Positions 39,895-61,789 of a stretch of 64,000 nucleotides of DNA are shown piece after piece. The position numbers and the translations under genes were made by a program. The number at the start of each line of letters is the position of its first letter. Position 1 is the stretch's first letter. The stretch lies in IMG/VR virus record IMGVR_UViG_3300020202_000067, positions 17,335 to 81,334 of that record; one strand, 5' to 3'. The notes beneath the pieces are model-generated. The model was not told where the DNA came from. It saw only the letters and a program-made list of their open reading frames with translations, and searched no databases. Origin of the DNA: a virus (Duplodnaviria; Heunggongvirae; Uroviricota; Caudoviricetes).

Positions 39895-40099
39895 GCTGAA
39901 ACCTCGTCCATGGCAAATCGCGCGGCTTCATCACGCGCTCCATTGTGGTGAATGTTCTTCCACAAGACAAACATTTGCGATGCCGTCTAGCACGACGTGT
40001 CTGCATCACCTTGCTTGCGCTGTACCGGCAATAGGGGCAACAGACCTCTGTCTGCGAACTCTTTGCTCCGGATCTTGGCAGTCTGATCCTAGCCATCAA
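39776..40099 (-). CDS. Ogr/Delta-like C4 zinc-finger protein (putative late transcription activator); probable ATG start at 40096
   Basis: 'CCPYCRYSASKVMQTRRARRHRKCLSCGRTFTTMERV' has CxxC-x17-CxxC spacing and an 'F-T-T-x-E-R-V' tail like P2 Ogr 'CSATFITYESV'. Its 3' end overlaps the VRR-NUC gene by ~118 nt in another frame, so the true C-terminus is uncertain. Confidence 0.35.
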   Translation of the reverse strand: MMARIRLPRSGAKSSQTEVCCPYCRYSASKVMQTRRARRHRKCLSCGRTFTTMERVMKPRDLPWTRFQREDRRGTATTISTTSTDGALAGGGDMEHGPRSARHELLP

Positions 40100-42929
40100 T
40101 TTCTCCGAGGTACTTCACAGCCTTGATCTTGATCATGCGGAAGTCAGGCGGAACTGAGCCCTTGATTGCATAGAGCGACTTGCCTACTCGACCTTGCTCC
40201 ACGATCTGCCGACCAATGCGCTCGAAGTCGTAGCGGCTCACCTTGCAAAAGATCATGTCGGTGTCGTCCTTAATGAACAAGTTCAACGCAGCCGTCGGCC
40301 CATTGACCGCGTAGCCGCGCTTCATGACGTTGACGGCTTCGTTCTCATCCTTGGGCGCGATCTTGGAAGCGACGCCGATGATGACAACATCCTTGAACGC
40401 ACCGTCCGCTTGCACATCAATGACTGGCGTTGGCGCAGTGACAATGTTGATTGCTCCAAGATCTGGATGCAGCTCCTTCACCTTGTCAGCTATTGGGAAC
40501 AACGTGTCAATGTCGGTCTTGGCGTTGTCAAGTCGCTTCTTCAAGGTGGCACGCAGCGGTGTTCCTGAGGACCTCGCTTCCATGATCTCGCGGACGGTTG
40601 CTGAACCGATGCCCTTGATCGAGGTGAGAGGACCCACAAGGATCGTCCTCTCACCTTTCTTGATTGGCATCCACTTGTCTGTGGAGTGGTCCGGGTCAAA
40701 GGCGAGATAGTCAATGCCTTCTTCCTTCAACTCGCGCAGCAGCGCAATCTGTTTTGCTGGATCGCTCTCAGCATCTAATGTGGCAGCGGCAAACTCAACA
40801 GGATAATGCGCCTTGAGCCAACAGCAATAATACGACACGAGACCGTAGGCGACAGCGTGCGAACGGTTAAAAGCCCAAGAGCCGAAGGTGTTGATCTGAT
40901 CCCAAACAAGGCGCGCTGTGTCTTCATCGATCCCATTTTTCAATGCTCCATCCTTGAACTTCAACCAGTAGCGTTCGAAGAACTCATTGCCGAGACGGCC
41001 AGACATCGCCTTACGAATAGCAGACGTGTCCTCCCAGGACATGCCTCCCATCTCACGCACGATCTTCATCACCTGTTCCTGATAGATGGTGATGCCGAGC
41101 GTCTCCTTGGTGAGCTCGGTAAGCATAGGATGATAAGAAGATATCGGCTCCTTGCCGAGCTTACGTCGCACCCAGGACCCAGCGCCGCCCGTGGCCATTG
41201 GTCCAGGGCGCGCAAGCGCTGTAATCGAGATGATGTCTTCTAGGTGCGTCACCTCAATCTGCTTCACTAGCGATTGCAACGCCTGACCAGCAAATTGGAA
41301 CACACCAGCGAAGCGGTGCTGACTGAGAACATTGAATGCCGCCGCATCGTCCAATGGCAATCGATCAAAGAAGCGGAAATTTCCCTCTTCGCCGATCAGC
41401 TCCAATGCGCGCTCGAAGATTGAAAGCTGCGTCAGACCCAGAGCGTCGATCTTGAGTAGGTTCAGATCCTCAGCATCCTTCTTGTCGCACATGGCTGCGT
41501 TGGTGCGGCTGTCTACAGCGACATATTCAAGAATAGGCTCATCGGTGACAAGAACGCCAGCCGCGTGTTGCGAGGACGTTGTCGGGTGGCCTTCCATGCG
41601 GGAAGCCATCATGGCTTCTGGAAATTCATTCAGAAGAGACTGACCATTGATTGTCTCCTTGAGCGTGTCCTCAAGTTGCTGCATGGCGCGTGAGTCACCG
41701 GAGGAGCGTTCGATGATGCCGTCAAGCGCCTTGTCAACCTTCCACTTTGGTATGCGCAAGGAGATGCCAGCTTGCTGCAACGCGCTCTTGGGGCCGTACA
41801 TCATCACGGTTCCCAGCCGAGCCATGCGCTCCTCGCCATATTTCTCGGCAATGTACTTGAACACCTCCTCACGCTGCTTGTCAGAGAAGTCAACGTCGAT
41901 ATCTGGCAAATCCGCGCGATTGATATCGATGAAACGCTCAAAGATCAGTCCGTAAGGGATGGGATCTACTGTAGTGATATCGAGTAGGTAGCACACGAGA
42001 CTTCCACAAGAGGAGCCACGTGCCGGTCCGACAGCCATGCGGTCTCGAGCCCAACCAACAATATCTGAGAGGATGTAGAAATAGTCTTCAAACTTCTTGT
42101 CGGCGATAAGCTTAAGCTCCCGATCAAGACGCTCAGCATAGACCTTGTCTTTCAAATTGATGGAGCGTTTCTTCGCTCCTTCAATACACAATTGACGCAG
42201 CGTCTTCTTGCGCTCAGGCTTCAGGAGCGTCGCCTTCCTCAGTTCAGCTCGACATTGCTTGATTGCGTTATCTCTGGCCTTGATGGCAGCAGCCTTGTCC
42301 CGTTCACTAGCAAACCAGACAGCCTCCATCCATTCGTCATCATCAATGATCCATTGCGGATATGTTTGAGTGCCAGCTCTCTTCCCGAGAGCGACACGGT
42401 AAAGCTCAAGATCGGCTTGGCGAGGAAAGACATTGTCGCCGCTAGCGATGAAGCGGAACCCAGCAGCCTTCGCTTGTTTGTAGAGACCAATTGGCGTTGA
42501 TGGTGATAGAGCAACATAGAGATCCTTGTCCTTTTTCTTCACACGCTCAAGCTGCAGACGCTCGCCAGCGATCTTGATCACGCCCTGTGCGGCAAGCGCC
42601 TGCTTGTAAAGCAAGCTCGGCTCACGGCCAGGATTGGCTGTTGCAAGCGCAATGAGCTCATGGATAGAACGCAATGAGTCCTTGGCGAAGAATGTCCAGT
42701 AGTCTGGGCTTGGCCGCTTCTCCCCCAGAGAAGAGACCACTGCTAGTTCTACACCATAGATCGGTCTAAGCTCGTGCTTTGCGCACAGCTTAGACCAACG
42801 ATTAAATCCGAAGGCGCTCGTCCTGTCTGAAATCGGCGCGGCCTTCCACTTGATCTCCTTCAGACGCTCTATAATGTCTGGCAGGTGCCCCACCGCAGTG
42901 CGGAAGGAATATCCCGTGCGTATTCTCAT
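40089..42929 (-). CDS. dnaE: DNA polymerase III alpha subunit (DnaE-type), compact 946 aa with degenerate PHP domain
   Basis: 'GPARGSSCGSLVCYLLDITTVDPIPYGLIFERFIDINRADLPDIDVDF' is the DnaE palm signature (cf. [23 protein letters not shown]...MPDIDIDF). The N-terminus 'MRIRTGYSFRTAVG' lacks the PHP His residues. Confidence 0.75.
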   Translation of the reverse strand: MRIRTGYSFRTAVGHLPDIIERLKEIKWKAAPISDRTSAFGFNRWSKLCAKHELRPIYGVELAVVSSLGEKRPSPDYWTFFAKDSLRSIHELIALATANPGREPSLLYKQALAAQGVIKIAGERLQLERVKKKDKDLYVALSPSTPIGLYKQAKAAGFRFIASGDNVFPRQADLELYRVALGKRAGTQTYPQWIIDDDEWMEAVWFASERDKAAAIKARDNAIKQCRAELRKATLLKPERKKTLRQLCIEGAKKRSINLKDKVYAERLDRELKLIADKKFEDYFYILSDIVGWARDRMAVGPARGSSCGSLVCYLLDITTVDPIPYGLIFERFIDINRADLPDIDVDFSDKQREEVFKYIAEKYGEERMARLGTVMMYGPKSALQQAGISLRIPKWKVDKALDGIIERSSGDSRAMQQLEDTLKETINGQSLLNEFPEAMMASRMEGHPTTSSQHAAGVLVTDEPILEYVAVDSRTNAAMCDKKDAEDLNLLKIDALGLTQLSIFERALELIGEEGNFRFFDRLPLDDAAAFNVLSQHRFAGVFQFAGQALQSLVKQIEVTHLEDIISITALARPGPMATGGAGSWVRRKLGKEPISSYHPMLTELTKETLGITIYQEQVMKIVREMGGMSWEDTSAIRKAMSGRLGNEFFERYWLKFKDGALKNGIDEDTARLVWDQINTFGSWAFNRSHAVAYGLVSYYCCWLKAHYPVEFAAATLDAESDPAKQIALLRELKEEGIDYLAFDPDHSTDKWMPIKKGERTILVGPLTSIKGIGSATVREIMEARSSGTPLRATLKKRLDNAKTDIDTLFPIADKVKELHPDLGAINIVTAPTPVIDVQADGAFKDVVIIGVASKIAPKDENEAVNVMKRGYAVNGPTAALNLFIKDDTDMIFCKVSRYDFERIGRQIVEQGRVGKSLYAIKGSVPPDFRMIKIKAVKYLGEIDG

Positions 42930-43375: not shown

Positions 43376-43616
43376 TGATGCGTTTCATATCTTCAAGCGT
43401 GGCTGCGCCAGACGCCACAACAGCGCATTGCGCCCAACCTAGCCAACGGCATTTCTTGCCATATGACATTGGATCATTTTCATCTTCTCGTTCCCGCATG
43501 CGGTGATACATATTGATCAAATGCGCTGCGCTCAGAGGTCCGCTGTTAGGCAATTTCTGCGCAACGGACGATGCAAGATAAACGGTTTCTTTCATCGCTT
43601 CCATAACATTCATCAA
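43281..43616 (-). CDS. hypothetical protein (3' end overlaps the HTH gene; extent uncertain)
   Basis: 111 aa ORF. ATGA-coupled to the DnaQ-like gene stop at 43613. Confidence 0.25.
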   Translation of the reverse strand: MMNVMEAMKETVYLASSVAQKLPNSGPLSAAHLINMYHRMREREDENDPMSYGKKCRWLGWAQCAVVASGAATLEDMKRINERNKKDPDDAVHTEGCGGVSENQEGGEAVP

Positions 43617-44155
43617 AGAATTCCCTTTTTAATGAGTTCAACACAACAGCGCTTGAGCGCCATGACGTCAACCTTGGCGCGATGAGCGCCCTCGAACTTC
43701 TCACCGAACAACAACTCGTGTAGGCCTGAAAGATTCAAGCGGTGACCTTTCAGGTGCACAGTCTGTTCCACAGTGCAGATCCTAATCTTTGGCCAATTAA
43801 CCTTGAGACCGCAACGTTCCGCCTCAATGTCGATCATCTCGATATCGAACGATAAGTTGTGCCCGATAACGATAGGTGATGCCTCGATCAGCTTAATGAT
43901 CTTCGAAGCTACATCCTTGAACGTTGGTGCGTCTTTCACATCCTCCCATTTGAGCCCTGTGATGGAGGTAATCAACTCAGTAATTGCCTCTGGTGAAGAG
44001 GGGCGTACAAGCTGATCGAGCTCATTGATCTTCTTGTCCTTAGCCAAGTCCCAAGTGCAGCCGTAGAATTCGATGAGCTCCGGCAGCTTGTCGTTCTTGA
44101 CTGTGCGGTTCTCAATGAGGCCGGTGGTCTCTGTGTCAAACAATAGAGCCTTCAT
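43613..44155 (-). CDS. dnaQ: DnaQ-like 3'-5' exonuclease (DEDDh, Pol III epsilon-like)
   Basis: Exo I 'LFDTETTGL', Exo II 'VIGHNLSFDIEM', Exo III 'HRAKVDVMAL'. 180 aa, next to dnaE. Confidence 0.7.
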   Translation of the reverse strand: MKALLFDTETTGLIENRTVKNDKLPELIEFYGCTWDLAKDKKINELDQLVRPSSPEAITELITSITGLKWEDVKDAPTFKDVASKIIKLIEASPIVIGHNLSFDIEMIDIEAERCGLKVNWPKIRICTVEQTVHLKGHRLNLSGLHELLFGEKFEGAHRAKVDVMALKRCCVELIKKGIL

Positions 44156-44784
44156 CCTGGCACCTTGATCCTTGGGCCATCACAACTGACGACTGGCTTG
44201 TGCTCAATATCGCTCCAATCAAAACGCCAGAAAAGTCCGTCTGGCATCTTGAAGATCACCGGAAAGCCTGTTGTCGCTTCGTCTCTGTAGTCATTATTCG
44301 CTTGCTCCTCATCAACTGATTCCACCATAGCGCAATAAACACCGGCATCATGGATAGAGTCGCGATGCGGCTTGCCTGCTTCAATGGAGACAGCATAACG
44401 CGAGAGCTTGACGACGATTAAAGAGAACAGGTGGAAGCGGTCGTGATCCTCCTTGGTCTTCAACGTCACGCCATTCGGAAAGAGTGCAGCGAAGGCTCCG
44501 CCAGCGCGCTTGTAGTTGTCGCCATAGACCTTGTTGCGCTCGCGGAAGGTGTTAGCGCCTTCAGCCAAGATGTCAGCCGCTGTCCGCTTAGTCATTGCTA
44601 TTCCCCTTGGGGTGGATGCGGCGGATGTACTTAATGTAGGTTCCGGGCGCGAGCTCAAAGATGCGGTAGTGGTACTTGCGTCCGGCGCCTCCGCCAGTTG
44701 TAAGATATTCACTGGTGTGACTCTGCGTAAATGTCTCCTGGACGAGCGTGCACCCATCCATTGCAGGAAAATCTGCGCCGTCAT
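44152..44784 (-). CDS. hypothetical protein (probable start 44595 'MTKRTAADIL...', 148 aa)
   Basis: RBS aaggggaa before the ATG at 44595. The upstream part of the track ORF is Ser/Thr/Ala low-complexity. Conserved-looking 'ERNKVYGDNYKRAGG' box. Confidence 0.3.
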   Translation of the reverse strand: MTAQIFLQWMGARSSRRHLRRVTPVNILQLAEAPDASTTTASLSSRPEPTLSTSAASTPRGIAMTKRTAADILAEGANTFRERNKVYGDNYKRAGGAFAALFPNGVTLKTKEDHDRFHLFSLIVVKLSRYAVSIEAGKPHRDSIHDAGVYCAMVESVDEEQANNDYRDEATTGFPVIFKMPDGLFWRFDWSDIEHKPVVSCDGPRIKVPG

Positions 44785-45208
44785 CGAGGTGTATTCCTAC
44801 ATGGGAGATGAACTCTCTTCCAATGCCCCATAGAGGATTTCCTGCTTGGTTGTAGCTCACCGGAGCGCCCATTGCATAATGATCTCCAGAAGCTAGGTGC
44901 CAGTGCCTGCCTTCAATGTAAGTCAAGATCTCAAGCTCAATGCCGAGAGAATAGTTGAACTGCAGACGGCCCTTGTTGATGCACCACTGGCCGTCCGGGA
45001 ACAGTGACTTGGCGGTCACGACGTCCTCGACCCAAGGCTCTGTGTCAAGACCCAAGAGAACCTTGATGCGTTCTTCTTGGTCCTTGGTCCTTGCGTAGAA
45101 GGCAATCTGATCAATCTTCATCGGAGGTTTTTCTAGTTTCACGTTCACCACCTTCGTTTTCCAGTTGTCCGGAGAAATGTTCATGGCCCACCATACGGAA
45201 TGTCGCAC
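44588..45208 (-). CDS. hypothetical protein
   Basis: 206 aa ORF (possibly shorter start). No family assigned. Confidence 0.3.
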   Translation of the reverse strand: MRHSVWWAMNISPDNWKTKVVNVKLEKPPMKIDQIAFYARTKDQEERIKVLLGLDTEPWVEDVVTAKSLFPDGQWCINKGRLQFNYSLGIELEILTYIEGRHWHLASGDHYAMGAPVSYNQAGNPLWGIGREFISHVGIHLDDGADFPAMDGCTLVQETFTQSHTSEYLTTGGGAGRKYHYRIFELAPGTYIKYIRRIHPKGNSND

Positions 45209-45879
45209 CCGGCGAGATATTTGTGGCGCTCCTTGGAGGAGAGAAGGAATGCGATGAACTCAGCGATGATAGCTGGTGGAGTTTCCTCGCCTGCAGGCAA
45301 AGCAGCAAGTTGATATTCTCTAGCTTGCTGTTCCGTCCACCCTCTGAGCTGCACCACGCGCCGGTCGATCTCTGCACTCATGTGCGTGCCTGACATCTTG
45401 TTGGGAGAGACGCTGAACACGGTGATGTTGTGCGTCTTCTTCAACTCACGCGCCAACTGCTTTGTCAGAATGGCGGCCGCGCCCTTGGAAGCGTTGTAAG
45501 CCGCTGAAGATGTCATTGGCACATGGCTGGCATTGGAAACGATGTTCACCACCGTCCCATCACGCAGCTCTTCAAGAAGCGCCTTGGTGCAAAGGAAGAT
45601 GCCCTTGGCATTGGTGTCCATCACATCATCCCACTCCTGCTCTGGAACGTTTGGCAGGAAGTTGATGCGATTGATGCCTGCACAATTGATTAGAACATCG
45701 ATCTTGTCCAGCCCCCGCTTCAAAAGATCGAGCCGAGCCTGCCCAATAGAAAAGCTGCTCGACACATCAATGTGGTGCTTCAGCGACCAGTCAATCACTC
45801 TCCAGCCATTCTTCAAGAGATGGTTGGAGATCGCTTCACCCAAGCCACTGCTCGCGCCTGTGATAACTGCTGTCTTCAA
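45181..45879 (-). CDS. short-chain dehydrogenase/reductase (SDR)
   Basis: 'VITGASSGLGEAI' is the TGxxxGxG Rossmann motif. 'NASH' and 'YNASKGA' fit the catalytic YxxxK. Confidence 0.65.
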   Translation of the reverse strand: MKTAVITGASSGLGEAISNHLLKNGWRVIDWSLKHHIDVSSSFSIGQARLDLLKRGLDKIDVLINCAGINRINFLPNVPEQEWDDVMDTNAKGIFLCTKALLEELRDGTVVNIVSNASHVPMTSSAAYNASKGAAAILTKQLARELKKTHNITVFSVSPNKMSGTHMSAEIDRRVVQLRGWTEQQAREYQLAALPAGEETPPAIIAEFIAFLLSSKERHKYLAGCDIPYGGP

Positions 45880-46319
45880 TTCTGCCTCCCATGCACCAAG
45901 AGCGCTGTGATACCAGCCTCTCTGAACGCTGCAACGACATCTTCTCTGTCGTCAATGATCAAGGCAACTTCATCTTTGAACCGCTCGCCGAAGCGTTCGG
46001 CGGCCAGCTTAAGCTTTATTTCCGCTGCCGGATGATAAGCCTCGTCCGGCCGCATAAGCAGCTCATCGAACATGGCGCCATGCTTGACGAGCAGCTCCAT
46101 AGTAAGCTTGCGCCACTTCTCCGGTCGTGCCGTAATGCCAACGATGTACATGCCGCCAGCGCGCATTGCATTAATCATGTTGACAACGTCATGGATCGGC
46201 TCGTCATCCTTGGAAGCGGCATGATAAGCGTCCCATCCTCCAGGGCCACCGATCATGTCGTCACGCCAGAAAGCATTCGACACTGTATGATCAATGTCAC
46301 ACAAAACGATCTTCCTCAT
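45876..46319 (-). CDS. HAD-superfamily phosphatase (PNK-phosphatase/nucleotidase-like)
   Basis: 'IVLCDIDHTVS' is motif I DxDxT. 'IVGITARP', 'IIDDRED' as motifs II-IV. 147 aa. Confidence 0.5.
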   Translation of the reverse strand: MRKIVLCDIDHTVSNAFWRDDMIGGPGGWDAYHAASKDDEPIHDVVNMINAMRAGGMYIVGITARPEKWRKLTMELLVKHGAMFDELLMRPDEAYHPAAEIKLKLAAERFGERFKDEVALIIDDREDVVAAFREAGITALLVHGRQN

Positions 46320-46633
46320 TGCTTTTGCACTCCTGCCATATTCTCGTAGAGTGCAAGCAATGAAGCATAGACCTTTTGCGGTGGATAAGGCGATGTGCCT
46401 GCATCGAACATCTTGAACTCGTTATCGCGATCACCCTTAAAGAAAGCGATCAAGATAACATGCTCCGCTCCAAGCCGCTCCTTGACTGCAACAGCCTCCT
46501 GATTGGCCGCCTGCTTACGCTGCAAGGCTACTTCTTGTTTGCCCAATTCGTCCTGCGCCATGACGCTCCCTCCTCTGCGCACTTGCGCGCTTCTGAAACC
46601 ATTTCCATGTCTTGGGTTGGACGCAACCCGCAC
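46316..46633 (-). CDS. hypothetical small protein (probable start ~46561 'MAQDELGK...')
   Basis: Track ORF 105 aa with a basic low-complexity N-terminus. Confidence 0.3.
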   Translation of the reverse strand: MRVASNPRHGNGFRSAQVRRGGSVMAQDELGKQEVALQRKQAANQEAVAVKERLGAEHVILIAFFKGDRDNEFKMFDAGTSPYPPQKVYASLLALYENMAGVQKQ

Positions 46634-46788
46634 TTGACCATCATCTCCCGACGATTGGCCCAGAGCTCAAGAAGCTCTTGGAACAACGGATCGCGCGCCA
46701 ACAATACGAACATTGGCTCGTCATCCTTGGCCTTCTCGTAACAGTCAAACTTGCCGGGGTTCTTCTTGGTTCCCATCTTCAGCTCCAT
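46528..46788 (-). CDS. hypothetical small protein
   Basis: 86 aa ORF. Confidence 0.3.
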   Translation of the reverse strand: MELKMGTKKNPGKFDCYEKAKDDEPMFVLLARDPLFQELLELWANRREMMVKCGLRPTQDMEMVSEARKCAEEGASWRRTNWANKK

Positions 46789-46966
46789 AGATCTTCATTC
46801 GGACTTTGTGTTCAGTTCTCATAGTGCGGTTCATCTCTTCTGTCATTTCATTTTGCTTCTCCAATGCGTCAGCGATGCGTTTGAGGGAAATTGCTACAGA
46901 TCTGTCATAAAAAGCCTTCCCCGAGCTGAAACTGCCAGCCTCAAATAATTCAACATCTCTGTTCAT
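46745..46966 (-). CDS. hypothetical small protein
   Basis: 73 aa ORF, helical, charged. Confidence 0.3.
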   Translation of the reverse strand: MNRDVELFEAGSFSSGKAFYDRSVAISLKRIADALEKQNEMTEEMNRTMRTEHKVRMKIYGAEDGNQEEPRQV

Positions 46967-47415
46967 CAGAACTGTTTACCTCCTTCTTTCAGACGGTTCT
47001 CAGGCTTGTGATCTTCACGCTTTTCATTGTACCAGACCTTCTCGAGCACAGCGCCAGAGAGATCAAGTCTGAACGCTCCTCCATAGTCAAAAGCGCGAAT
47101 GAATAGATCTCCCAGCTCGACCTCCTCGCTCTTACGGTGCGGCAAGTGATCATCCATCTTGTCCTTACGCACACCTTCGAGCATCTCAGATAGTTCAGAA
47201 TGCTTGAGCGCAATCATCTCACCTTTGTTTCTTTCGATCCGCTCTCCCGTTCTTGGGTCCTGCCACCACCTTGCGTTTTTGTGGTGCAGGATCGCGGCCA
47301 GCCAGTTGAGGCTTTGCGCGTGTTGAACGAGCAGTCTGTTGATCGTCTCTTCGCTGAACCGGCTCAAGTCTGGTAAGCTCATCTTCCATCTCCACTCCGA
47401 CAATGTAAAGTTCAT
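46966..47415 (-). CDS. MazG-like nucleoside triphosphate pyrophosphohydrolase (probable start 47382)
   Basis: 'MIALKHSELSEMLEGVRKD...EEVELGDLFIRAFDY' is the MazG E-rich helix pair pattern. RBS ggagatggaag before the ATG at 47380-47382. Confidence 0.55.
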   Translation of the reverse strand: MNFTLSEWRWKMSLPDLSRFSEETINRLLVQHAQSLNWLAAILHHKNARWWQDPRTGERIERNKGEMIALKHSELSEMLEGVRKDKMDDHLPHRKSEEVELGDLFIRAFDYGGAFRLDLSGAVLEKVWYNEKREDHKPENRLKEGGKQF

Positions 47416-47534
47416 TACGCAGCTCGGTGAGTGACATCCTGCTTAGCCGTCCTGAAGTTACGGCCAAGGTCGAGGTGACTTTGGAAAGACGTTGATGCCA
47501 CCTCACCCAAGCGATGATTTTCTCAGTAATGGTC

Positions 47535-47741
47535 TCACCCCGCATGCTTGACCATCACTTCGATATTCAATACTCTGAGTTGCTTAAGCACACTTTCAGC
47601 GCCTTCCCGATAGCCCTGAAGTCTTGCTTGCGCCTCCGCTTCATCTCTTGTGCGTTTGAGCTCATGAAGTTCTTTCAACAACTCCTCAACTTTCTTTTGA
47701 TCGCCACATATTTCTTGGGCGAACAGTTTATAGTCTGTCAT
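47535..47741 (-). CDS. hypothetical small coiled-coil protein
   Basis: 68 aa ORF. Confidence 0.3.
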   Translation of the reverse strand: MTDYKLFAQEICGDQKKVEELLKELHELKRTRDEAEAQARLQGYREGAESVLKQLRVLNIEVMVKHAG

Positions 47742-47859
47742 GACAACGCCCTCATCTGATCGATCAACTTGATCATGTGCGTCTTCTGTTCAGCAGAGAT
47801 TGTGTTGTCAATTCCTGGAAACTGAGAAACAGGAATTGATCTGACGACTTCTCCACGCA

Positions 47860-48825
47860 TCATTGCGCCGGAACCGCGACTGGTGTTGAACTTGGCAGAA
47901 CCATAACATTAACCTTGCCTGTCTCTACAGCCTTCATGAGAGCATCGGCTCGCTCCTTCTCAGCCAGAGCCAACAGCACATCACGAATTTGCGCTGGCGT
48001 GAAGTTGTCAGGCAATTGCTCAAACAAGCGCTTGACACCAATGCCTTCATTCGAGCGTCTTGCCGCTTGCTCCTCAGCTATCTGCGTCAGCAATTTTTGG
48101 CGCTTGCGGTCCTCTTCAGAAGCCATGCGTTCAGCAATAGCGTTAAGCACCTTGGCGTCTGGCAGCACTTCGCGCAGAAGCACCGGCATGAAGGTGATTG
48201 CGCCCTTGGCCTCTGTATCCGTGAAGCCAAGCTTGATGAGATCATTGTTCACGGCGCGAACGACTTCCTCCATCATGCGCTGTTCAACGTCCGCGCGCCG
48301 CTCAACGCTAGCGTCTGCCCATGGAAATGAGGCGATTGCGTCTCTGACCGCGGCCCTTGCGGCGGGAACAATAAGATTGCGTTCAAGTGCATCCTCGTCG
48401 CCAATGCGCTGCAGGATCTTCCATGCGACTGAAGGGTTGATGGAGTAGGGGAAGGAAGCTTCCACCTGCACCGGGTTATGATCCTTAGACATCGACACAA
48501 TGGTCGGGCCGTCTGCGTCTTTGGCCTTGGCTGAGAAGTCAACGGACCGGCGCTGGATGGAGATCTTGGTGACGTCGTACATCGGGTTCATGAAGCGCAA
48601 CCCTTCAGGATAGGCTGTCTCCTGCACCGCGCCGAACCATTGGCCAACGCCAACATGGCCTGTGGAGACAGGGCTGATGGACATGATCAATGACCAAATG
48701 GCAGTGACCACCACACCTGCAACAAACCACAAACCAGCCAGACCTCCGCGACCGTCCAGCAACGAGAAAAGAGTCGCAATCAGAACGATAAAAGCGATGA
48801 TGCCTACACCAACAAGAAACAACAT
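47860..48825 (-). CDS. SPFH/band-7 (stomatin/prohibitin/HflK-like) membrane protein
   Basis: 321 aa. N-terminal TM segments (LFLVGVGIIAFIVLIATLF; LWFVAGVVVTAIWSLI), then 'GHVGVGQWFGAV...EGLRFMNPMYDVTKISIQ' SPFH-type core, then a long helical tail. Confidence 0.5.
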   Translation of the reverse strand: MLFLVGVGIIAFIVLIATLFSLLDGRGGLAGLWFVAGVVVTAIWSLIMSISPVSTGHVGVGQWFGAVQETAYPEGLRFMNPMYDVTKISIQRRSVDFSAKAKDADGPTIVSMSKDHNPVQVEASFPYSINPSVAWKILQRIGDEDALERNLIVPAARAAVRDAIASFPWADASVERRADVEQRMMEEVVRAVNNDLIKLGFTDTEAKGAITFMPVLLREVLPDAKVLNAIAERMASEEDRKRQKLLTQIAEEQAARRSNEGIGVKRLFEQLPDNFTPAQIRDVLLALAEKERADALMKAVETGKVNVMVLPSSTPVAVPAQ

Positions 48826-48835
48826 GTCTTCCTCC

Positions 48836-49618
48836 TCAGGAAAGAGCTCTCATCTGGTCGATCAGCTTGATCATGAACCTCTTCTCCTCGATTGAGATCG
48901 GGAGTTGTCTGATGTGATTGTCAAGATCATTCGCTGCCTTATCGAACGTTCGCTCGATAAACAAGTCGATCCAAGGGTGCACGGCGCGCACCGCAGTCTT
49001 CATGTCCTCAAGCACGTCACGGTATTCGCCCTGGGTGCGGGATGAGGAGCGCTTGCGCACCACATCAACAAACGTGCGCATGTTCATCTTGGCGACGATG
49101 TTGGTCAAGATGTTGGTGGGCAAGATGCCGCGTGCGTCTTCGATCGCAGCGCCATTCTTAATTAGCTCCTTGTAAACTGTATCAGTGAACGACATGCCTT
49201 GATCATAGATATGTTGTAGTCCTTCACTCTCAACGATGCTCGGCCCTGTCAGGTAGTCCCACCCCGGACCCTCGCTCACGTCCAAAACGCGCATGGTCTG
49301 TTGAGCAAAGCTGGCGGTGCGCGTGCGCACAAACTGGTGCGTGAAGGCGCGCGTCACATCCTCAATGACGAAGGTGTAGTCAACAAACTCCCAACTCGAT
49401 GGGATCGTATTGGCCATGTATTCGAGCTCCTTCCAGAGCTCAGCGATCGGCATGTCGAGGTATTTGCGCAAGCCTTCCGGGTTCATGGTGAGGCGCGTGT
49501 TCTTGGTGAACACAAGCAGTGCCGCCGCATAGTGGCTGGCATCCAGCCGCCCAGACCCGGTGTAGTCAAGCAGTGAGACCTTCAGCTTCTTCATCGCTCT
49601 CTCCATAAACTCTCTCAA
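48836..49618 (-). CDS. flavin-dependent thymidylate synthase (ThyX)-like protein with non-canonical RTR..S motif
   Basis: 260 aa. 'HQFVRTRTASFAQQTMRV' aligns to the ThyX signature RHRxxSxxxxSxR with H->T and second S->T. C-terminal 'RGILPTNILTNIVAKMNMRTFVDVVRKR' resembles the ThyX C-terminal helix. Confidence 0.5.
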   Translation of the reverse strand: MREFMERAMKKLKVSLLDYTGSGRLDASHYAAALLVFTKNTRLTMNPEGLRKYLDMPIAELWKELEYMANTIPSSWEFVDYTFVIEDVTRAFTHQFVRTRTASFAQQTMRVLDVSEGPGWDYLTGPSIVESEGLQHIYDQGMSFTDTVYKELIKNGAAIEDARGILPTNILTNIVAKMNMRTFVDVVRKRSSSRTQGEYRDVLEDMKTAVRAVHPWIDLFIERTFDKAANDLDNHIRQLPISIEEKRFMIKLIDQMRALS

Positions 49619-50273
49619 GCACCTGCCGGACCTTCATGAGATCCATCTTGTCGTCCACTGTCCGCACGCCGCTTTCCATGTCGATGTAGTACGGGCCGCG
49701 CGCATTCATCTTGACCAGTTCAGCAACAACTTTGTCAGGGTTGAGGCCGCCTGAATAACCGTTGATGCCTTGCTTGTTTTCAAGATAGCGAGGCCAATGC
49801 TCTGGTCGGAGACCTCTTCCGCCTGAAGGATCATACAACCAATCTACCCGAGGATCAGTCGGCATCGCCGGTAATTGATGCTGCAACACCACGCGCACGC
49901 CATACTTCTTGCTGAACTCTACAGCATGGTCTTTCCAAAAGACATCTCCTGAAACAGGACGATAGTTGACCTGCACCCTCTGGAAACGCGACCATGGTAT
50001 GCTTGGACTGACAGGGTCAAGATCGCCGGTGTCGATGATCTTCTTCGCAAAGTAACCACAGATGTGCGCGGAGAGCGGCAACATCGATCTGGCCAGCTCC
50101 TTCACGTATGCGTAATCTGGGTAGCGAGGATGATTGCCGCTCTTGGTCGGCGAGAAGAGCACACCCCATTCAATGCGGCCGAGGTTCTCACGCGTGATCA
50201 CTTCAGCGTCGTTGATGTAGATGCTCTCATCGATGCCGGTGAAGGTGATGTGGTTAGGGAGCAACATTGCCAA
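49566..50273 (-). CDS. phosphoribosylanthranilate isomerase (TrpF)-like TIM-barrel protein
   Basis: C-terminal 'YSGGLNPDKVVAELVKMNARGPYYIDMESGVRT' parallels TrpF 'SGGLNPENV...AVDVSSGVE'. 'LYDPSGGRGLRPEHW' parallels 'LLDAGGSGKTFDW'. Confidence 0.45.
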   Translation of the reverse strand: MAMLLPNHITFTGIDESIYINDAEVITRENLGRIEWGVLFSPTKSGNHPRYPDYAYVKELARSMLPLSAHICGYFAKKIIDTGDLDPVSPSIPWSRFQRVQVNYRPVSGDVFWKDHAVEFSKKYGVRVVLQHQLPAMPTDPRVDWLYDPSGGRGLRPEHWPRYLENKQGINGYSGGLNPDKVVAELVKMNARGPYYIDMESGVRTVDDKMDLMKVRQVLERVYGESDEEAEGLTA

Positions 50274-50526
50274 ACCTCATTTGCCCGATGGTCCTTGCAT
50301 CAAGTTCTTTTACCCGCTCTTCCAATTTCTTCAGCCTTTCAACTTCATCCTTGCCTTTAAAAGAGCCACAAAAGTCGTCCTTAAAGGTTAATGGCCAATT
50401 GGCGCTTTTCCAAGATCCAGGAGCCATTTCTTCTGCGCCACTCTTAGGAGGAGCGCCGTGACAGAACCCATATCCCTCCTTCCAAGGTGCAAACCAAGAA
50501 CACTTTTCACAATTGTTGTTGTTCAT
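50254..50526 (-). CDS. hypothetical small Cys-containing protein
   Basis: 90 aa. CxxC plus additional Cys/His. ATGA-coupled at 50523. Confidence 0.3.
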   Translation of the reverse strand: MNNNNCEKCSWFAPWKEGYGFCHGAPPKSGAEEMAPGSWKSANWPLTFKDDFCGSFKGKDEVERLKKLEERVKELDARTIGQMRFGNVAP

Positions 50527-51455
50527 CTATGCCTCGCTAGCTTGTATCCACGGTCCTTGGATGCGATCCATTTGTCAATGAGGCGGACGTCATTGACGAG
50601 GTCGTCTAGCAGCAAACCAGGACGCCACGTCGCGAAGCGTCCCAAGGAGAAGACGCCGTGCTTGTCGGTCGCCCAGTGAATGAACTCTTTGCGCATGTAG
50701 TCATCCACCGGAGCTATTTTTGCATAGCGCTGCTCCACGGCACGAGGATTTTCCACCCAAGCGCTCGAGATGCCAAGCATCGTGCAGGCTTCTCTCGCCA
50801 AGTCGTCTGCATCGATTTGACTGGCATTCACTCCAGGGATCTCGACAATGAGCTCATTGCCAGTGAGCGAAACGCGCGAGATCGGGTTGCCTGGATCTGT
50901 GACCAGGATCGAAACATAAGCGTCGCAACGCGCAACAGCAGCTCGTACATTGACACCGTGCATCCAATTGAAAAGGAACTTGTCGCGCAACGGATATTGA
51001 AGGGCATCCATCAACAAAGGCATAGGGATGGTCGAGACCGTCACCACATTCGGGTCTCTTTCTGCACCCTCCCTATAAAATTCATAGTCTGTGTCAAAGA
51101 GCGCGCGCACAGGATCAGCCATCTGCTGGATGAGATCTGGCGGAGCGATCCAACGTTCAGACGCGACGAGGCCATCAATGACGGACCGGTCTGAGCGGTA
51201 AACCTGATTGTTCTTGTAGGAATAAGCCAACGCATCCGCCACCGGGTTCAGCCACGGCAGCGCATACTTGATCATCTTCACCTTCTTGAACTCGATGCCG
51301 AGAACGTCGCCAATCTGCGGCGTGCGGAAGCGCAACACGGCTGAGTGATTGTTCGGCAGACCCTTTTGCTTTTCATACACGATAGGCTGGCGATGTTGCA
51401 GCATCCGCGCCGCGAGTAGACCTGCCATCCCGGCACCTACAATTTCGAGTTTCAT
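50523..51455 (-). CDS. FAD/NAD(P)-binding oxidoreductase
   Basis: 'MKLEIVGAGMAGLLAARML' is an N-terminal GxGxxG dinucleotide-binding fold. 310 aa. Confidence 0.5.
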   Translation of the reverse strand: MKLEIVGAGMAGLLAARMLQHRQPIVYEKQKGLPNNHSAVLRFRTPQIGDVLGIEFKKVKMIKYALPWLNPVADALAYSYKNNQVYRSDRSVIDGLVASERWIAPPDLIQQMADPVRALFDTDYEFYREGAERDPNVVTVSTIPMPLLMDALQYPLRDKFLFNWMHGVNVRAAVARCDAYVSILVTDPGNPISRVSLTGNELIVEIPGVNASQIDADDLAREACTMLGISSAWVENPRAVEQRYAKIAPVDDYMRKEFIHWATDKHGVFSLGRFATWRPGLLLDDLVNDVRLIDKWIASKDRGYKLARHR

Positions 51456-52933: not shown

Positions 52934-53305
52934 TCATGAAATTGCAACCTCAAATGTGGGCCATCGAACTTGGCGCTTGGGTTGATATGGAAACGTCACT
53001 GGAACATTGCTGTCGATGTCATACACGCGTCCAGTTCTAGCATCTTTGAATACAGAACCACAACGCTTGTTCTGAAACAATGGGCCATCATCTGAAATTT
53101 CCATCCACTCATCGTCCTCACCCGTGAGCGGAGAGAGCGGACCGCCCGCAAGCAATTGCATGAACACCGGAGCGACAGCCGCGACGGCTCCTCCACTGTC
53201 CCATTGATCGAGAAACTTTTCCAAGATCTCAATCATGACTGCGCTGTCTTCCTCGCCGAAGTTGATGCGCTCAAGCTCAGCCTTGGCTTGATCGATGATG
53301 CTCAT
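52934..53305 (-). CDS. hypothetical acidic protein
   Basis: 123 aa ORF. Confidence 0.3.
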   Translation of the reverse strand: MSIIDQAKAELERINFGEEDSAVMIEILEKFLDQWDSGGAVAAVAPVFMQLLAGGPLSPLTGEDDEWMEISDDGPLFQNKRCGSVFKDARTGRVYDIDSNVPVTFPYQPKRQVRWPTFEVAIS

Positions 53306-53601
53306 GATATCGGCTCCTCCATAATGTCTGAGTAGTCGCCAACATTGTAACCGACAATAGGTGGAATTTCAACAGATGGCACGTGCCGCGCCATAGCCGC
53401 TTCCTTGCTCTCCAAGGCGCAATCGACTTCTTCACATGCGCCATACTCATTCCATCCTGCACCGCAAGTTGTGCAATAGAACGGCTCACCGTCCTTCGAG
53501 TCACGGAACCCGCGCTTGCGGTTCATGGCCAGTTCGATTTCAGGTGCAATCTCTGCCACGATAGTTCCTCCTGATGTTCTCCTTGAGCGACACCGCTTCA
53601 A
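53302..53601 (-). CDS. hypothetical small protein (likely shorter start 'MNRKRGF...')
   Basis: 99 aa track ORF. Cys cluster 'YCTTCGAGW...CEEVDC'. Confidence 0.3.
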   Translation of the reverse strand: MKRCRSRRTSGGTIVAEIAPEIELAMNRKRGFRDSKDGEPFYCTTCGAGWNEYGACEEVDCALESKEAAMARHVPSVEIPPIVGYNVGDYSDIMEEPIS

Positions 53602-53881
53602 GGTGCTCTGGGTTAACGCATCTGCGGTGTGCTAGCGGCAACCAGCCCCAGTGCTTGCATATATGGTCAACTGTCTGGCTGCGACGCAACTTCTTCCCAT
53701 TGAACAACTCCCATGCGCGACGATGCACGTAAAACCACACCTCAACGCCACCAATCCAGCGCTTCGCTTTTGGATAATTCCGCCCGCGCCCCTTGCCGTC
53801 TCCGCTATCAGCCCCAATCCACAACCAACAACCTGATGGACACACAATTACCCGTTCAAGAATTTCCTCGATTGATTGCAT
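53540..53881 (-). CDS. HNH endonuclease (free-standing, homing-endonuclease-like)
   Basis: 113 aa. 'CPSGCWLWIG...YVHRRAWELFNG...VDHIC...RRCVNPEHL' is an HNH_3-type pattern. Confidence 0.55.
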   Translation of the reverse strand: MQSIEEILERVIVCPSGCWLWIGADSGDGKGRGRNYPKAKRWIGGVEVWFYVHRRAWELFNGKKLRRSQTVDHICKHWGWLPLAHRRCVNPEHLEAVSLKENIRRNYRGRDCT

Positions 53882-54494: not shown

Positions 54495-55121
54495 CTAGAC
54501 CCCCATCCAATCATTGTCCATTGCTTCATTAGTGTCCCAGATGCAGTACTCCACCTCAGTCTTTCCGATAATGTAGTTGCGCCTCATCAAGACTTCCCTT
54601 GCATCTTGCAGCAGCTTCTCAAACCAATAGCGCGTGGTCCGCGCTCGCATGGTGAGGATCCTGTATTCGCGATCATGCCGTGTGGAGAGATGCATATTGA
54701 GGCAGTGCAACAGCTCCCGGTCGAAGAGCTCAGGAGTGTGCACATGCACGTGCGCCTCGAAGTATCCCTTCTCATCGAACGGCACTCGTTGCGGTGCGTT
54801 CGGGTGCCATGGAACGGTTTCGATTTTCTTGCGAATGATTTCAATGTCGAAGTCTTTTTGTAAAAACTCCGACTGGTCCTCCATCTCACGCCGCGCTTGC
54901 AGTTCAAGCTCACAACGAACAATTTCAGACGTGAGAAACTCACGCTTCAAGTTGCCGTCCGGAAGATGATTGTCGATGACAATCAAATCAAGCCCAGCAG
55001 CTCTGATTTTATCGCCAGGATCATTTGCCAGCGTGAGATGAATTTCATACGGCAAATTCATGACCATTCTCCTGATTGGGAGACGGCGGGAGAGTGCTCC
55101 CTTCTCCCCCGCCGCCATCAC
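54495..55121 (-). CDS. hypothetical protein
   Basis: 208 aa track ORF (real start probably 'MVMNLPYEIHL'). Carries 'HLTL' and a His-rich 'HVHVHTPE' stretch, but no confident 2H-phosphoesterase assignment. Confidence 0.3.
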   Translation of the reverse strand: MMAAGEKGALSRRLPIRRMVMNLPYEIHLTLANDPGDKIRAAGLDLIVIDNHLPDGNLKREFLTSEIVRCELELQARREMEDQSEFLQKDFDIEIIRKKIETVPWHPNAPQRVPFDEKGYFEAHVHVHTPELFDRELLHCLNMHLSTRHDREYRILTMRARTTRYWFEKLLQDAREVLMRRNYIIGKTEVEYCIWDTNEAMDNDWMGV

Positions 55122-55153: not shown

Positions 55154-56179
55154 TTACATCGTTTCGCTGTCACCAGCCGGGCGCTCAACACCTTCAGCAG
55201 CATCAAACGTCCGGGCACCAGTCGCCATGTCTTGTGCGAGCTTCTGACCGCGCTGCAGATCCTCCAGCGTGGGCACCCAGAAGGTGGACGGGATGCCTTC
55301 CTCTTCCTCACCGGCGTCCGTGATCTTGAACACGTACCAGGACTGCGCACCCTTGGTGCGGATCTCAGTGGTGAAGCGATAATAAACAGCGCAAGAGTCA
55401 GCACGCTGACCGTCGATCTGCTTATTGTTCATAAGCATCATCCAGGCCTTCGCGACAGAATGGCCTGTGGAAGCGAAGGGGATGACCAGCGGGATTGGCG
55501 GGTTCTCGCCATTCTCGTCAATGAGCCACCCACCATGGTAGCGCGTCTCCACGATGATGTTGCCATTCGGCCGCACGAGGAATTCACGATCCGGGTTCTG
55601 CGGATCAATGCCCTTCTTGCTCACTGTATCGCGAGGCATATCGTCATGCATGGCGACGAAGCCTTGACCGCCGCCGCCACCCGAATTGCGCGGCAGCCAC
55701 TCCACCCACTTCTTCTGGAAGTAGCAAGGCTGGAACAGAAAGCCCTGCTCGCCCTTGATCAGCGGGTTCGGGGCGTTCTTGATCAGGATGTCACCAGCCT
55801 GCGCGCCAGGGATCTGGGTCTGGGAGCCACGCATCACTTCAGGCGAATTAGCCTGCAGCACCCGTGCCATCGGGATGAGCAGGTCTGAGGCATCCTGCGA
55901 GGTGCCAGCGCCTGTCATCTTGGCTTGAGCGAGATGTGCAGGAACCTTGCCGCCTGAAGCAGTCACGGCACGCTGTTGGGACCTCTTGTCATTCACCGCT
56001 GGCACGGACGCCTTGCCCTTGGTCGGCGTCGCGGCCTTCTGTGCAGTCTTAGCCATTGTCTTTCTCCAGGTTATCATCTCGGCCGAAAACGCCGAATGCT
56101 TCAAGAGCCTTGCGTGCACACTCACGATCACGCAAGGCCATGAACTCCTCAAACGCCTTGATCGCTTCTTCTGGACCAA
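55154..56179 (-). CDS. hypothetical protein with basic N-terminal tail and acidic C-terminus (possible DNA-binding/recombination-associated protein); probable start ~56054 (MAKTAQK...)
   Basis: Track ORF 341 aa. The first ~40 aa are Arg/Ser low-complexity. Confidence 0.3.
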   Translation of the reverse strand: MVQKKRSRRLRSSWPCVIVSVHARLLKHSAFSAEMITWRKTMAKTAQKAATPTKGKASVPAVNDKRSQQRAVTASGGKVPAHLAQAKMTGAGTSQDASDLLIPMARVLQANSPEVMRGSQTQIPGAQAGDILIKNAPNPLIKGEQGFLFQPCYFQKKWVEWLPRNSGGGGGQGFVAMHDDMPRDTVSKKGIDPQNPDREFLVRPNGNIIVETRYHGGWLIDENGENPPIPLVIPFASTGHSVAKAWMMLMNNKQIDGQRADSCAVYYRFTTEIRTKGAQSWYVFKITDAGEEEEGIPSTFWVPTLEDLQRGQKLAQDMATGARTFDAAEGVERPAGDSETM

Positions 56180-57201: not shown

Positions 57202-57804
57202 TCATGCACGCTTCACCTTCGGCTTCACGACGCGGCCGACGGATGCCCCAAGCAGCTCCAGCGGCGGCATCACGCCCTTTTCCTCGACCATCTCCTTCAC
57301 AAACGCTGTGAGCGTCTGCGGGTGCACCGTCTCCTTGAACTTGGCGCTCACGCCTTTCTTCTTGCACACGCTCTCAAAGAACTTCTCAGCTTGCTCCTTG
57401 CGGCCGCGCTCGAAGGAGGAGATGACATCAACCTTGATCAAGTCGCCATGACCGTTCTTTTCAAGCCAATCGAAGGCAGCACGGCGCTTTTCCTCCGGCC
57501 ATGTGGCCGCGATGTTGGCGCTGTAGTACGGTTTCATCTCATATTCAATGGCCGGGTAATTGCCATCAGCCTGGAGCGTGAAGGCTTCCATCTTGCATTC
57601 ATCAAAGAGATCAGGAATGGTCTTGGAATAGAGACCATTGAGTTGTTGGCGCATCTCCGACAACCGTTCTTCGAGGGACGTGATTTCCCTCTCAAGGTCT
57701 CTGGCGTCTGTCAGATGCTTTTCAAGGCGGGACAGCTTGTCTTGGGGGACTTCTTGCTTGCTAGAAACTGCGGCGGCTGCCACAGCGGCGCTAGGTTTCG
57801 ACAT
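57202..57804 (-). CDS. first gene of the leftward early operon; coiled-coil protein (recombination/host-takeover candidate)
   Basis: 200 aa. N-terminal Ala-rich stretch, then a long coiled coil 'LSRLEKHLTDARDLEREITSLEERLSEMRQQL'. Directly downstream of the divergent promoter region. Confidence 0.35.
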   Translation of the reverse strand: MSKPSAAVAAAAVSSKQEVPQDKLSRLEKHLTDARDLEREITSLEERLSEMRQQLNGLYSKTIPDLFDECKMEAFTLQADGNYPAIEYEMKPYYSANIAATWPEEKRRAAFDWLEKNGHGDLIKVDVISSFERGRKEQAEKFFESVCKKKGVSAKFKETVHPQTLTAFVKEMVEEKGVMPPLELLGASVGRVVKPKVKRA

Positions 57805-61489: not shown

Positions 61490-61789
61490 ATGAAATTGAA
61501 ATATTTAACAAAGCGTGAACGCCAAGTTTTTGATGCGTGCGTTGGCGGCTTGCTCGACAAGGAAATTGCCCACACTCTCGATATCAAGTCAGAGACAGTC
61601 AAGGTGCACAAACACCACATTTACAAAAAGCTAGGATTGAGGAACAAAGCTGAACTCGCCTTCATACGTGGAAAACAGGAAGCCGTTTCAATCCTCGAAC
61701 TCATTGCCTTGACCGAATTTGCCGGCGATGAATCAGTCAGCAGGCTTGTGGCCAAATTCAAGGAGAAAGTCGAAAATGGCCTGGGTTGA
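61490..61789 (+). CDS. LuxR/FixJ-type HTH transcription regulator (DNA-binding domain only)
   Basis: 'LTKRERQVFDACVGGLLDKEIAHTLDIKSETVKVHKHHIYKKLGLRNKAEL' is the canonical GerE/LuxR HTH. Confidence 0.65.
   Translation: MKLKYLTKRERQVFDACVGGLLDKEIAHTLDIKSETVKVHKHHIYKKLGLRNKAELAFIRGKQEAVSILELIALTEFAGDESVSRLVAKFKEKVENGLG

Follow-up and report, generated by a model that had tools for sequence, protein, structure and literature searches.

Positions 44152-51455 of the window analysed here (64,000 nucleotides, positions 17,335 to 81,334 of the IMG/VR virus record IMGVR_UViG_3300020202_000067, class Caudoviricetes) hold a replication-linked nucleotide module that is common to a very large group of phages with a DnaE-type polymerase. 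The group includes Pbunavirus, Wifcevirus, the MyoSmar group of Serratia, the Carpasina/FoX group of Xanthomonas, podoviruses of Vibrio, Cronobacter and Ralstonia, and hundreds of uncultured viruses. The conserved core of the module is a trio: a ThyX-like protein, a flavin adenine dinucleotide (FAD) protein found only in viruses, and a HAD phosphatase with a DUF6378 domain. The trio is the best available candidate for synthesis of the modified thymidine of Pbunavirus, and the reading favoured here, with a probability of about 0.4, is that it makes or helps to install a C5-substituted thymidine of the Pbunavirus kind and does not simply make deoxythymidine monophosphate (dTMP). The original prediction had described the same positions as a ten-gene island encoding a candidate thymidine modification pathway.

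DNA of the Pbunavirus phage F8 resists enzymes with TG in their site, and in F8 and 14-1 new nucleosides of 362 and 390 Da, with sugar-bearing adducts (sugar-alcohol or pentose), replace about a quarter of thymidine, at TG sites (Yee et al. 2025 preprint, PMC12191111). Pbunavirus phages carry no known modification genes, and no biosynthetic genes have been assigned (PMC12191111). No later paper assigning genes to the Pbunavirus modification was found, and a preprint on T-dioxygenases and another on antiviral glycosylases, both recent, hold no link to Pbunavirus or ThyX. Wifcevirus also resists restriction-modification, by a mechanism that is not known. The known thymidine hypermodification pathways begin with a homologue of thymidylate synthase (PMC8989533), and a tblastn search with E. 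coli ThyA detected no enzyme of the ThyA type either in the window or in the loci fetched. The modification reading is favoured because the aberrant ThyX is the only thymidylate-synthase homologue of the lineage, and such a homologue is the entry enzyme elsewhere.

The replication-linked module

Window coordinates are used throughout, and the module genes are read on the minus strand, which holds every gene between 40 and 58 kb of the window. All originally predicted open reading frame (ORF) coordinates in the region were reproduced, as was their common minus-strand direction. The genes of the conserved order are as follows.

50523-51455 (-): virus-restricted FAD flavoprotein, 310 amino acids (aa), GAGMAG motif, phrog_4828 (unknown function), obligate neighbour of the ThyX-like gene
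48836-49618 (-): ThyX-like protein of a phage-specific subfamily, Pfam Thy1; public gene start 49594 (252 aa)
45876-46319 (-): HAD phosphatase of the PNKP-phosphatase type, conserved core, HAD_PNKP PF25109 4.2e-14, phrog_415 3e-31
45181-45879 (-): classical short-chain dehydrogenase/reductase (SDR), FabG-like, optional, adh_short 3.3e-37, phrog_3142, in 27 loci including Wifcevirus Bas99
44588-45184 (-): VOC-like protein (HPPD/glyoxalase fold), optional, no family match, in 19 loci
44152-44784 (-): DUF6378-type all-alpha protein, conserved core, phrog_4889 over its C-terminal part 1.2e-21, Pfam DUF6378 weak at 0.095
43613-44155 (-): DnaQ-like 3'-5' exonuclease, RNase_T 4e-17, downstream boundary of the module, in 67 loci
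40089-42929 (-): DnaE-type (Pol III alpha) replicative polymerase, PHP and DNA_pol3_alpha, synteny anchor, in 61 loci

An IMG/VR scan with a flavoprotein profile gave 542 loci, the best 80 of which were examined; counts for the HAD, DUF6378, SDR and VOC-like genes were made over 88 loci, these 80 and eight fetched earlier. The order in the best 80 of the 542 is Pam3-gp34-like gene, flavoprotein, ThyX-like, HAD, optionally SDR and VOC-like, DUF6378, exonuclease and DnaE. The ThyX-like gene is present in all 78 IMG/VR loci that reach beyond the flavoprotein, and this strict pairing with the FAD enzyme suggests shared chemistry. HAD was found in 74 of the 88 loci and DUF6378 in 64, with the exonuclease seen in 67 loci and DnaE in 61. 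The SDR (27/88) and VOC-like gene (19/88) are an optional add-on, present in the window; the SDR always accompanies the VOC-like gene across loci, and in 19 loci the latter lies between SDR and DUF6378. The window itself has the flavoprotein, ThyX-like, HAD, DUF6378, exonuclease and DnaE in the same order, together with Pam3 gp33-like and gp34-like genes.

Among isolates, Pbunavirus Banzai, F8 and 14-1 have the order flavoprotein, small ORFs, ThyX, HAD+DUF6378, exonuclease and DnaE-type polymerase, the HAD+DUF6378 gene being annotated in Pbunavirus records as "polynucleotide kinase/phosphorylase", and Wifcevirus Bas99 adds to this order a FabG-like SDR and a 44588-45184 homologue. In F8 the ThyX-like gene is ORF59, the flavoprotein gene ORF65 and the HAD-DUF6378 gene ORF57. 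The Pbunavirus (F8, 14-1, PB1) and Wifcevirus modules thus share with the window the gene set and order, a ThyX-like protein of the same subfamily and the Pam3 gp33/gp34-like genes, and Wifcevirus shares its SDR and VOC-like genes as well. The window phage differs from them in being a podovirus of about 81 kb with 30-38% protein identity to theirs, in having separate HAD and DUF6378 genes (fused in Pbunavirus, Wifcevirus and a Rhizobium phage), in its extra TrpF-like, SPFH and MazG-like genes, and in a ThyX-like protein that lacks a Cys-rich extension.

By tblastn, homologues of the ThyX-like protein and the flavoprotein were found, respectively, in 292 and 291 Pseudomonas, 29 and 27 Escherichia, 9 and 9 Serratia, and 10 and 8 Rhizobium phage isolates, and both are also shared by phages of Xanthomonas, Vibrio and Ralstonia. 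The list of flavoprotein matches contained no Synechococcus, Microbacterium, Bacillus, Clostridium or Streptomyces phage; the four phage ThyX proteins checked, from Clostridium, Bacillus, Synechococcus and Streptomyces phages, are canonical. A 207-kb Rhizobium phage with another, unrelated backbone carries the trio within 6 kb. The flavoprotein pattern gave a single relative in 185,579 species genomes of bacteria and archaea, on a 42-kb phage-like contig of a metagenome-assembled genome with the same module.

Related modules also contain extra genes: 5 loci have a NodU-type carbamoyltransferase, 3 a methyltransferase and 2 an Nmad5 ("nucleotide modification associated") domain, and there are hydrolases comprising a dATP/dGTP diphosphohydrolase domain (dGTP_diPhyd_N, 11), a YfbR-like 5'-deoxynucleotidase (HD, 6) and MazG (3). 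Extra genes lie between conserved ones at L020 13284-15122, L013 10750-11586, L038 3922-4818 and L031 17973-18551; they encode a NodU-type carbamoyltransferase, an Nmad5 protein, a methyltransferase and an unannotated 273-aa protein with a DDD motif. Such insertions of carbamoyltransferase, Nmad5, methyltransferase and DDD-motif genes suggest lineage-specific tailoring steps.

The description of the region as an island was dropped because its G+C fraction (0.505-0.544) is the same as that of the remaining window and the gene order is that of a conserved backbone; a compositional island was accordingly rejected. When the region was searched at near identity against 50,697 phage records, no DNA match was obtained; identical genes do occur on public contigs from metagenomes, the longest 81 kb. 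The window encodes T7-like tail-tube (A/B) and internal-virion proteins, which indicate a podovirus, as had been proposed.

The ThyX-like protein and its conserved partners

The ThyX-like protein matches Pfam Thy1 (PF02511) over residues 68-216 at 2.4e-32 (112.7 bits against a cut-off of 24.8) and fails the NCBIfam equivalog TIGR02170 with 86.4 bits against 87.9. It reads RTRTASFAQQTMR at the canonical RHRxxSxxxxSxR, and its sequence RTRTASFAQQTMRV departs from the signature RHRxxSxxxxSxR(Y), Ser88 and Tyr91 included. Seventy-five non-redundant ThyX-like proteins of the module were aligned with T. maritima ThyX, whose numbering is used, and four canonical phage ThyX proteins; the T. maritima sequence used agrees with PDB fragments.

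In the subfamily, His53 is replaced by Ile or Leu (60 and 10 of 75; Ile in the window), the N-terminal alignment being less certain at this position. His59 is replaced by Phe, His79 by Thr, Ser or Asn (His in 0/75, RHR becoming RTR in the window), Asn85 by Ala, also in the window, Tyr91 by Val or Ile (Tyr in 0/75, Val in the window) and His178 by Arg, while position 88 is Thr in 33, Ala in 24 and Ser in 18. Glu58, Gln75, Arg78, Arg80, Ser83, Arg90, Arg147, Arg165 and Arg174 are kept, and the arginines that bind deoxyuridine monophosphate (dUMP) and FAD are nearly invariant (R78, R80, R147 and R174 in 75/75, R90 in 71/75). All five canonical ThyX proteins aligned retain the His, Ser and Tyr of the signature. 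In canonical ThyX, Tyr91 and Ser88 are strictly conserved and critical, mutation of Tyr91 slows flavin oxidation about 1000-fold, and His53 stacks on folate and flavin and hydrogen-bonds Tyr91 and Asn85 (PMC11940539). Because His53, Asn85, Ser88, Tyr91 and the His of RHR are replaced and the arginines retained, the subfamily has lost the canonical apparatus that passes a methylene from folate to dUMP and has kept the nucleotide site. By its residues, the protein is assigned to a distinct non-canonical subfamily, all of which is marked by the odd motif. The non-canonical character originally predicted from the His79 and Ser88 variants is thus borne out, with the changes of His53 to Ile, Asn85 to Ala and Tyr91 to Val added to it.

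Compared with canonical ThyX (TM0449; PF02511, TIGR02170), the module protein shares the Thy1 domain and, like many phage ThyX proteins, a location among replication genes; it differs in always having a dedicated flavoprotein and HAD-DUF6378 partner, which canonical ThyX does without. The ThyX-like proteins of Pbunavirus (L007 7159-8076) and Wifcevirus (L008 6444-7253) carry a Cys-rich C-terminal extension (C-x4-C-AFPR-x-G ... C), missing from those of the window, Vibrio and Rhizobium phages, which may be a metal- or DNA-binding module.

The flavoprotein was recognised in the original prediction as a GxGxxG FAD/NAD oxidoreductase, in agreement with its GAGMAG motif and its match to phrog_4828, the sole family found; its sole Pfam match is a weak N-terminal one to NAD_binding_8/DAO. 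Its fold is amine-oxidase-like and closest to UDP-galactopyranose mutase (UGM) and protoporphyrinogen oxidase (PPOX), with UGM the best structural match and PPOX and amine oxidases scoring nearly equal; a PDB sequence search was uninformative beyond weak UGM hints. It differs from UGM (Glf) and PPOX in its low identity to them (11-17%), in the lack of a Pfam GLF or amine-oxidase match, in its length (310 aa versus 365-510 aa, which leaves part of the substrate domain missing), in not showing the full three-domain architecture, and in an invariant Arg-rich set of its own (R42, R44, R101, R194, R273 and R278).

The HAD protein has DIDHT at residues 8-12, in keeping with the DxDxT nucleophile motif. 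Two HAD phosphatases had been predicted for the region; that at 45876-46319 stands, and the protein at 44152-44784 is of the DUF6378 type and not a HAD. The public call of the DUF6378-type ORF is 44152-44595 (147 aa), its family has nine invariant residues (R20, Y24, P40, K63, R66, D79, S80, D83 and Y87), and a PDB sequence search with the family detected no relative. A MazG-type pyrophosphatase was considered for DUF6378 and dropped because hhalign found no relationship to the two MazG-like proteins of the window.

The SDR was correctly named in the original prediction (TGASSGLG for TGxxxGxG and YNASK for YxxxK), which overlooked the conserved VOC-like gene at 44588-45184. This gene has no Pfam or PHROG match and 160 homologues, all unannotated, and a PDB sequence search with the family was uninformative. 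An AlphaFold2 model (pLDDT 90.9) gave weak Foldseek matches, the best to HPPD (7e-4) and glyoxalase-family proteins. The invariant His and Glu of the family may bind a metal, and the modelled protein is a putative metalloenzyme.

Proposed thymidine modification and rival explanations

If the trio acts in thymidine modification, the ThyX-like protein would form a reactive pyrimidine intermediate of the 5-methylene or 5-hydroxymethyl type, without reduction to methyl, the flavoprotein would carry out a redox or sugar-handling step, and the HAD enzyme would dephosphorylate the nucleotide or an appended sugar. The SDR/VOC pair, along with the carbamoyl- and methyltransferases of relatives, could tailor the side chain. 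We know of no report of a ThyX-type enzyme in a thymidine hypermodification pathway. The ThyA-based pathways of SP10, PhiW-14, ViI, M6 and PaMx11 resemble the module in placing an enzyme of the thymidylate-synthase family beside phosphatase and redox enzymes (an FAD enzyme in PaMx11) and in tailoring enzymes that vary among relatives (PMC8989533). What survives of the modification pathway originally proposed is its place in a lineage with chemically shown thymidine hypermodification (F8, 14-1) and with tailoring genes in the modules of relatives; the hallmark genes of hypermodification were not found.

Several points weigh against the modification reading. The ThyA-based pathways use a ThyA-type dUMP hydroxymethylase, a P-loop 5-hydroxymethyldeoxyuridine (5-hmdU) DNA kinase and amino-acid:DNA transferases, none of which was found here: a scan of about 50 ORFs of at least 60 aa, all inside the window and so not reaching the other 17 kb of the contig, gave no Pfam match to the kinase or to the transferase (aGPT-Pplase), and no TET/JBP protein or glycosyltransferase was among them. 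The adducts of F8 and 14-1 differ though their trio genes are 81-97% identical. Partial, TG-specific modification implies an enzyme that reads sequence at the DNA level, and no member of the trio is obviously one. Nucleoside chemistry is available for the distant relatives F8 and 14-1 only, and the Pbunavirus modification is tied to the trio through guilt by association. The module lies amid replication genes, the usual place of an ordinary dTMP synthase, and the ThyX-like protein has intact dUMP-binding arginines and a high Pfam ThyX score. Fold and PDB searches gave no function for the DUF6378 or VOC-like proteins.

A gene-by-gene comparison of F8 and 14-1 found no strongly divergent gene in the module. 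ORF70 (L089 15894-17090 in F8, L090 15997-17301 in 14-1), which is not a module gene and shows no recognisable domain, is 57% identical between the two phages, its neighbours being 91-99% identical. As the sole strongly divergent gene it is a candidate for strain-specific traits, for instance the adduct difference or the END-nuclease inhibitor.

Nearly as likely as the modification reading is a divergent two-component thymidylate synthase, in which the ThyX-like protein would still convert dUMP to dTMP with help from the flavoprotein and so boost the supply of deoxythymidine triphosphate (dTTP). The flavoprotein would supply reducing equivalents or an activated one-carbon unit in place of the lost His53/Tyr91 machinery, the HAD/DUF6378 protein would be a replisome-associated end-processing or pool enzyme, the SDR a FabG-like moron, and the Pbunavirus modification the product of other genes. 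Such a synthase is consistent with the high Thy1 score, 1.5 bits under the NCBIfam equivalog cut-off, with the conservation of all nucleotide-binding arginines, with an exonuclease/DnaE neighbourhood typical of phage dNTP-supply genes, with the missing hypermodification hallmarks, and with the reduction by NAD(P)H of eukaryotic UGMs, the best structural match of the flavoprotein (PDB 5vwt and 5vwu among the matches). The residues critical for methylene transfer are, however, replaced in 75 of 75 members, canonical phage ThyX functions without such a partner, UGM- and PPOX-like proteins are not known as ThyX flavin reductases, and the model has no need of the strictly co-inherited HAD-DUF6378.

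It is unlikely that the ThyX-like protein is catalytically degenerate and serves as a nucleotide-binding, regulatory or structural partner, for instance a dUMP/dTMP sensor or replisome accessory, beside a flavoprotein with an unrelated redox role. The loss of Tyr91, Ser88 and His53 with the binding arginines kept would fit such a role, as would the Cys-rich extension in Pbunavirus and Wifcevirus, but a polar set (E58, Q75, R78, R80, R90, R147, R165, R174 and R178) is strongly conserved in 75 diverse members, and this conservation of the active site suggests retained catalysis.

A bolder and still less probable form of the modification chemistry is that the ThyX-like protein and the UGM-like flavoprotein act together to alkylate C5, either in dUMP or in a uracil or thymine of DNA, and use an aldose sugar for this in place of a one-carbon unit. 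UGM forms a flavin-N5-sugar adduct, and a carbinolamine or iminium adduct at flavin N5 would provide a route to a C-C-linked polyol or ketose 'thymidine'. By mass arithmetic that agrees with the Pbunavirus nucleosides, deoxyuridine plus pentose minus H2O plus 2H gives 362, and deoxyuridine plus hexose minus H2O gives 390, these C-C readings being isobaric with the O-linked ones. ThyX, which shares this flavin-N5 chemistry, reacts directly with formaldehyde (PMC8316439). On this route the HAD enzyme would strip the sugar phosphate, the SDR and VOC-like proteins would tailor the chain, and the inserted TrpF-like phosphosugar isomerase could alter the sugar used in the window phage.

Inserted and neighbouring genes, and significance

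Four further genes lie within the region.

50254-50526 (-): 90-aa Cys-containing ORF between the flavoprotein and TrpF-like genes, called as a gene on a public contig
49566-50273 (-): PRAI(TrpF)-like TIM-barrel protein, 235 aa, a distinct family inserted into the module
47860-48825 (-): SPFH/Band-7 membrane protein, Pfam Band_7 6.7e-18
46966-47415 (-): MazG-like all-alpha nucleoside triphosphate (NTP) pyrophosphatase candidate, phrog_5658 pyrophosphatase 7e-51, phrog_3301 6e-16

The small ORFs and the TrpF-like, SPFH and MazG-like genes occupy a variable slot, where they are insertions specific to the window. The resemblance of the 49566-50273 protein to TrpF (phosphoribosylanthranilate isomerase, PRAI; PF00697) holds for its C-terminal phosphate motifs (GYSGGLNPDKV, IDMESGVR, and LyDpSGG with the invariant D148, equivalent of the general-acid Asp D126 of T. 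maritima TrpF) and for its family profile, which matched only PRAI structures in the PDB (E 0.006-0.03; a single-sequence PDB search was uninformative). It does not extend to a Pfam match of its own, and the NCBIfam PRAI match is C-terminal (3e-4), with equivalog scores of 20.3 and 16.7 bits against cut-offs of about 212-215. The family has 93 database members and 163 IMG/VR loci, and some relatives carry weak PF00697 matches. It shares with TrpF the TIM-barrel relationship, the GG-L-N-P and D/E-SGV motifs and the general-acid Asp, and departs from it in a new invariant polar set (D15, E35, H70, C72, R99, Q101 and N103), in the lack of a trp operon, and in the apparent replacement of the catalytic N-terminal Cys (C7 of KICGIT in T. 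maritima TrpF) by Thr in ITFTGID, as judged by eye, HMMER leaving the N-terminal half unaligned.

The TrpF-like gene is absent from 80/80 module loci, and neither the ThyX-like nor the flavoprotein gene occurs within 10 kb of it in the best 80 of its 163 viral loci, so that a functional tie to ThyX was rejected. Its viral neighbours are early or recombination genes, with occasional counter-defence genes; among them are YqaJ, RecT-like, DnaA-C helix-turn-helix, radical SAM, Lar and Acb1. In Duganella sp. 1411 (JAFICD010000002.1, L005 8001-9801) a homologue lies directly upstream of an inosine-uridine nucleoside hydrolase, in an apparent nucleoside catabolism locus with this uncharacterised PRAI-fold enzyme, a PfkB kinase, a xanthine/uracil permease, a GntR regulator and TonB receptors; no tryptophan-biosynthesis context was seen in the loci inspected. 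The mutual absence points to an accessory enzyme that moves independently and is probably an isomerase of phosphosugars or ribosyl compounds. It happens to have entered the variable slot that separates the flavoprotein and ThyX-like genes, and it is probably not part of the pathway, contrary to the original prediction.

The least probable explanation is the literal ten-gene pathway, in which ThyX would make 5-substituted dUMP, the TrpF-like protein would rearrange a sugar-amine side chain by Amadori-type chemistry, and canonical dTTP would be purged by MazG and HAD. In its favour, the genes are neighbours with a common direction, the TrpF-like gene stands precisely between those for the flavoprotein and ThyX-like protein and keeps the general-acid Asp and phosphate site, and the Pbunavirus adducts derive from sugar. 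Against it, the core is a replication-module backbone, the TrpF-like, SPFH and 46966-47415 MazG-like genes are found in 0, 0 and 1 of 80 related loci, the surroundings of the TrpF-like family elsewhere are early, recombination and anti-defence genes or, in a bacterium, a locus for nucleoside catabolism, and there is one HAD only.

The SPFH protein, rightly identified as a membrane protein, is a window-specific insertion that probably has nothing to do with nucleotide chemistry. The assignment of 46966-47415 to MazG is upheld by its PHROG pyrophosphatase match and not by Pfam, where it matches neither MazG nor MazG-like families; it is a variable accessory gene of the module, and different hydrolases of NTPs or nucleoside monophosphates occupy its slot elsewhere. 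The 90-aa ORF has no Pfam, PHROG or NCBIfam match and is absent from the 80 related loci. Outside the originally predicted coordinates lie a weak second MazG-like candidate at 54495-55121 (-) (phrog_1247, 1.9e-5) and, at 22583-23017 (-), a sub-threshold HAD_SAK_2 match (E 0.007) that may be the second HAD of the original prediction.

Upstream of the module, 52934-53305 (-) encodes a 123-aa protein that matches Pfam Tad3 (Type I Thoeris inhibitor) at 1.9e-23 and is likely an anti-Thoeris gene by this similarity; it lies 1.5 kb upstream of the flavoprotein gene. Amid small early genes, 53540-53881 (-) encodes an HNH_3 homing-type endonuclease (1.2e-7), a homologue of which is placed between the exonuclease and DnaE in locus L020. 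The Pam3 gp34-like (PF23977) and gp33-like (DUF7307) proteins are encoded at 55154-56056 (-) and 57202-57804 (-), and their conservation in the phage supergroup equals that of the polymerase. Farther away, 10359-19343 (+) encodes a 2994-aa internal-virion-type protein whose residues 638-797 or so weakly match P-loop kinase/polynucleotide-kinase PHROGs and a separate region of which matches an endolysin family; this is possibly an ejected protein with several enzyme activities. The host may be an alphaproteobacterium, to judge from a GcrA cell-cycle-regulator domain (5e-16) at 61719-62414 (+).

Pbunavirus phages rank with those most used in therapy against Pseudomonas, and the strictly co-inherited, virus-only trio narrows the question of the Pbunavirus modification and the Wifcevirus restriction resistance to a few genes. 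Should the trio prove to be a two-component dTMP synthase, it would still be a new enzymological variant of ThyX, and alkylation by an aldose would represent a new class, flavin-dependent nucleobase glyco-alkylation. If the trio does make or install a C5-substituted thymidine, it would be the first ThyX-based route of base modification, and hundreds of uncultured phages, including that of the window, would be likely carriers of modified DNA, with a bearing on sequencing, on restriction and defence, and on engineering.

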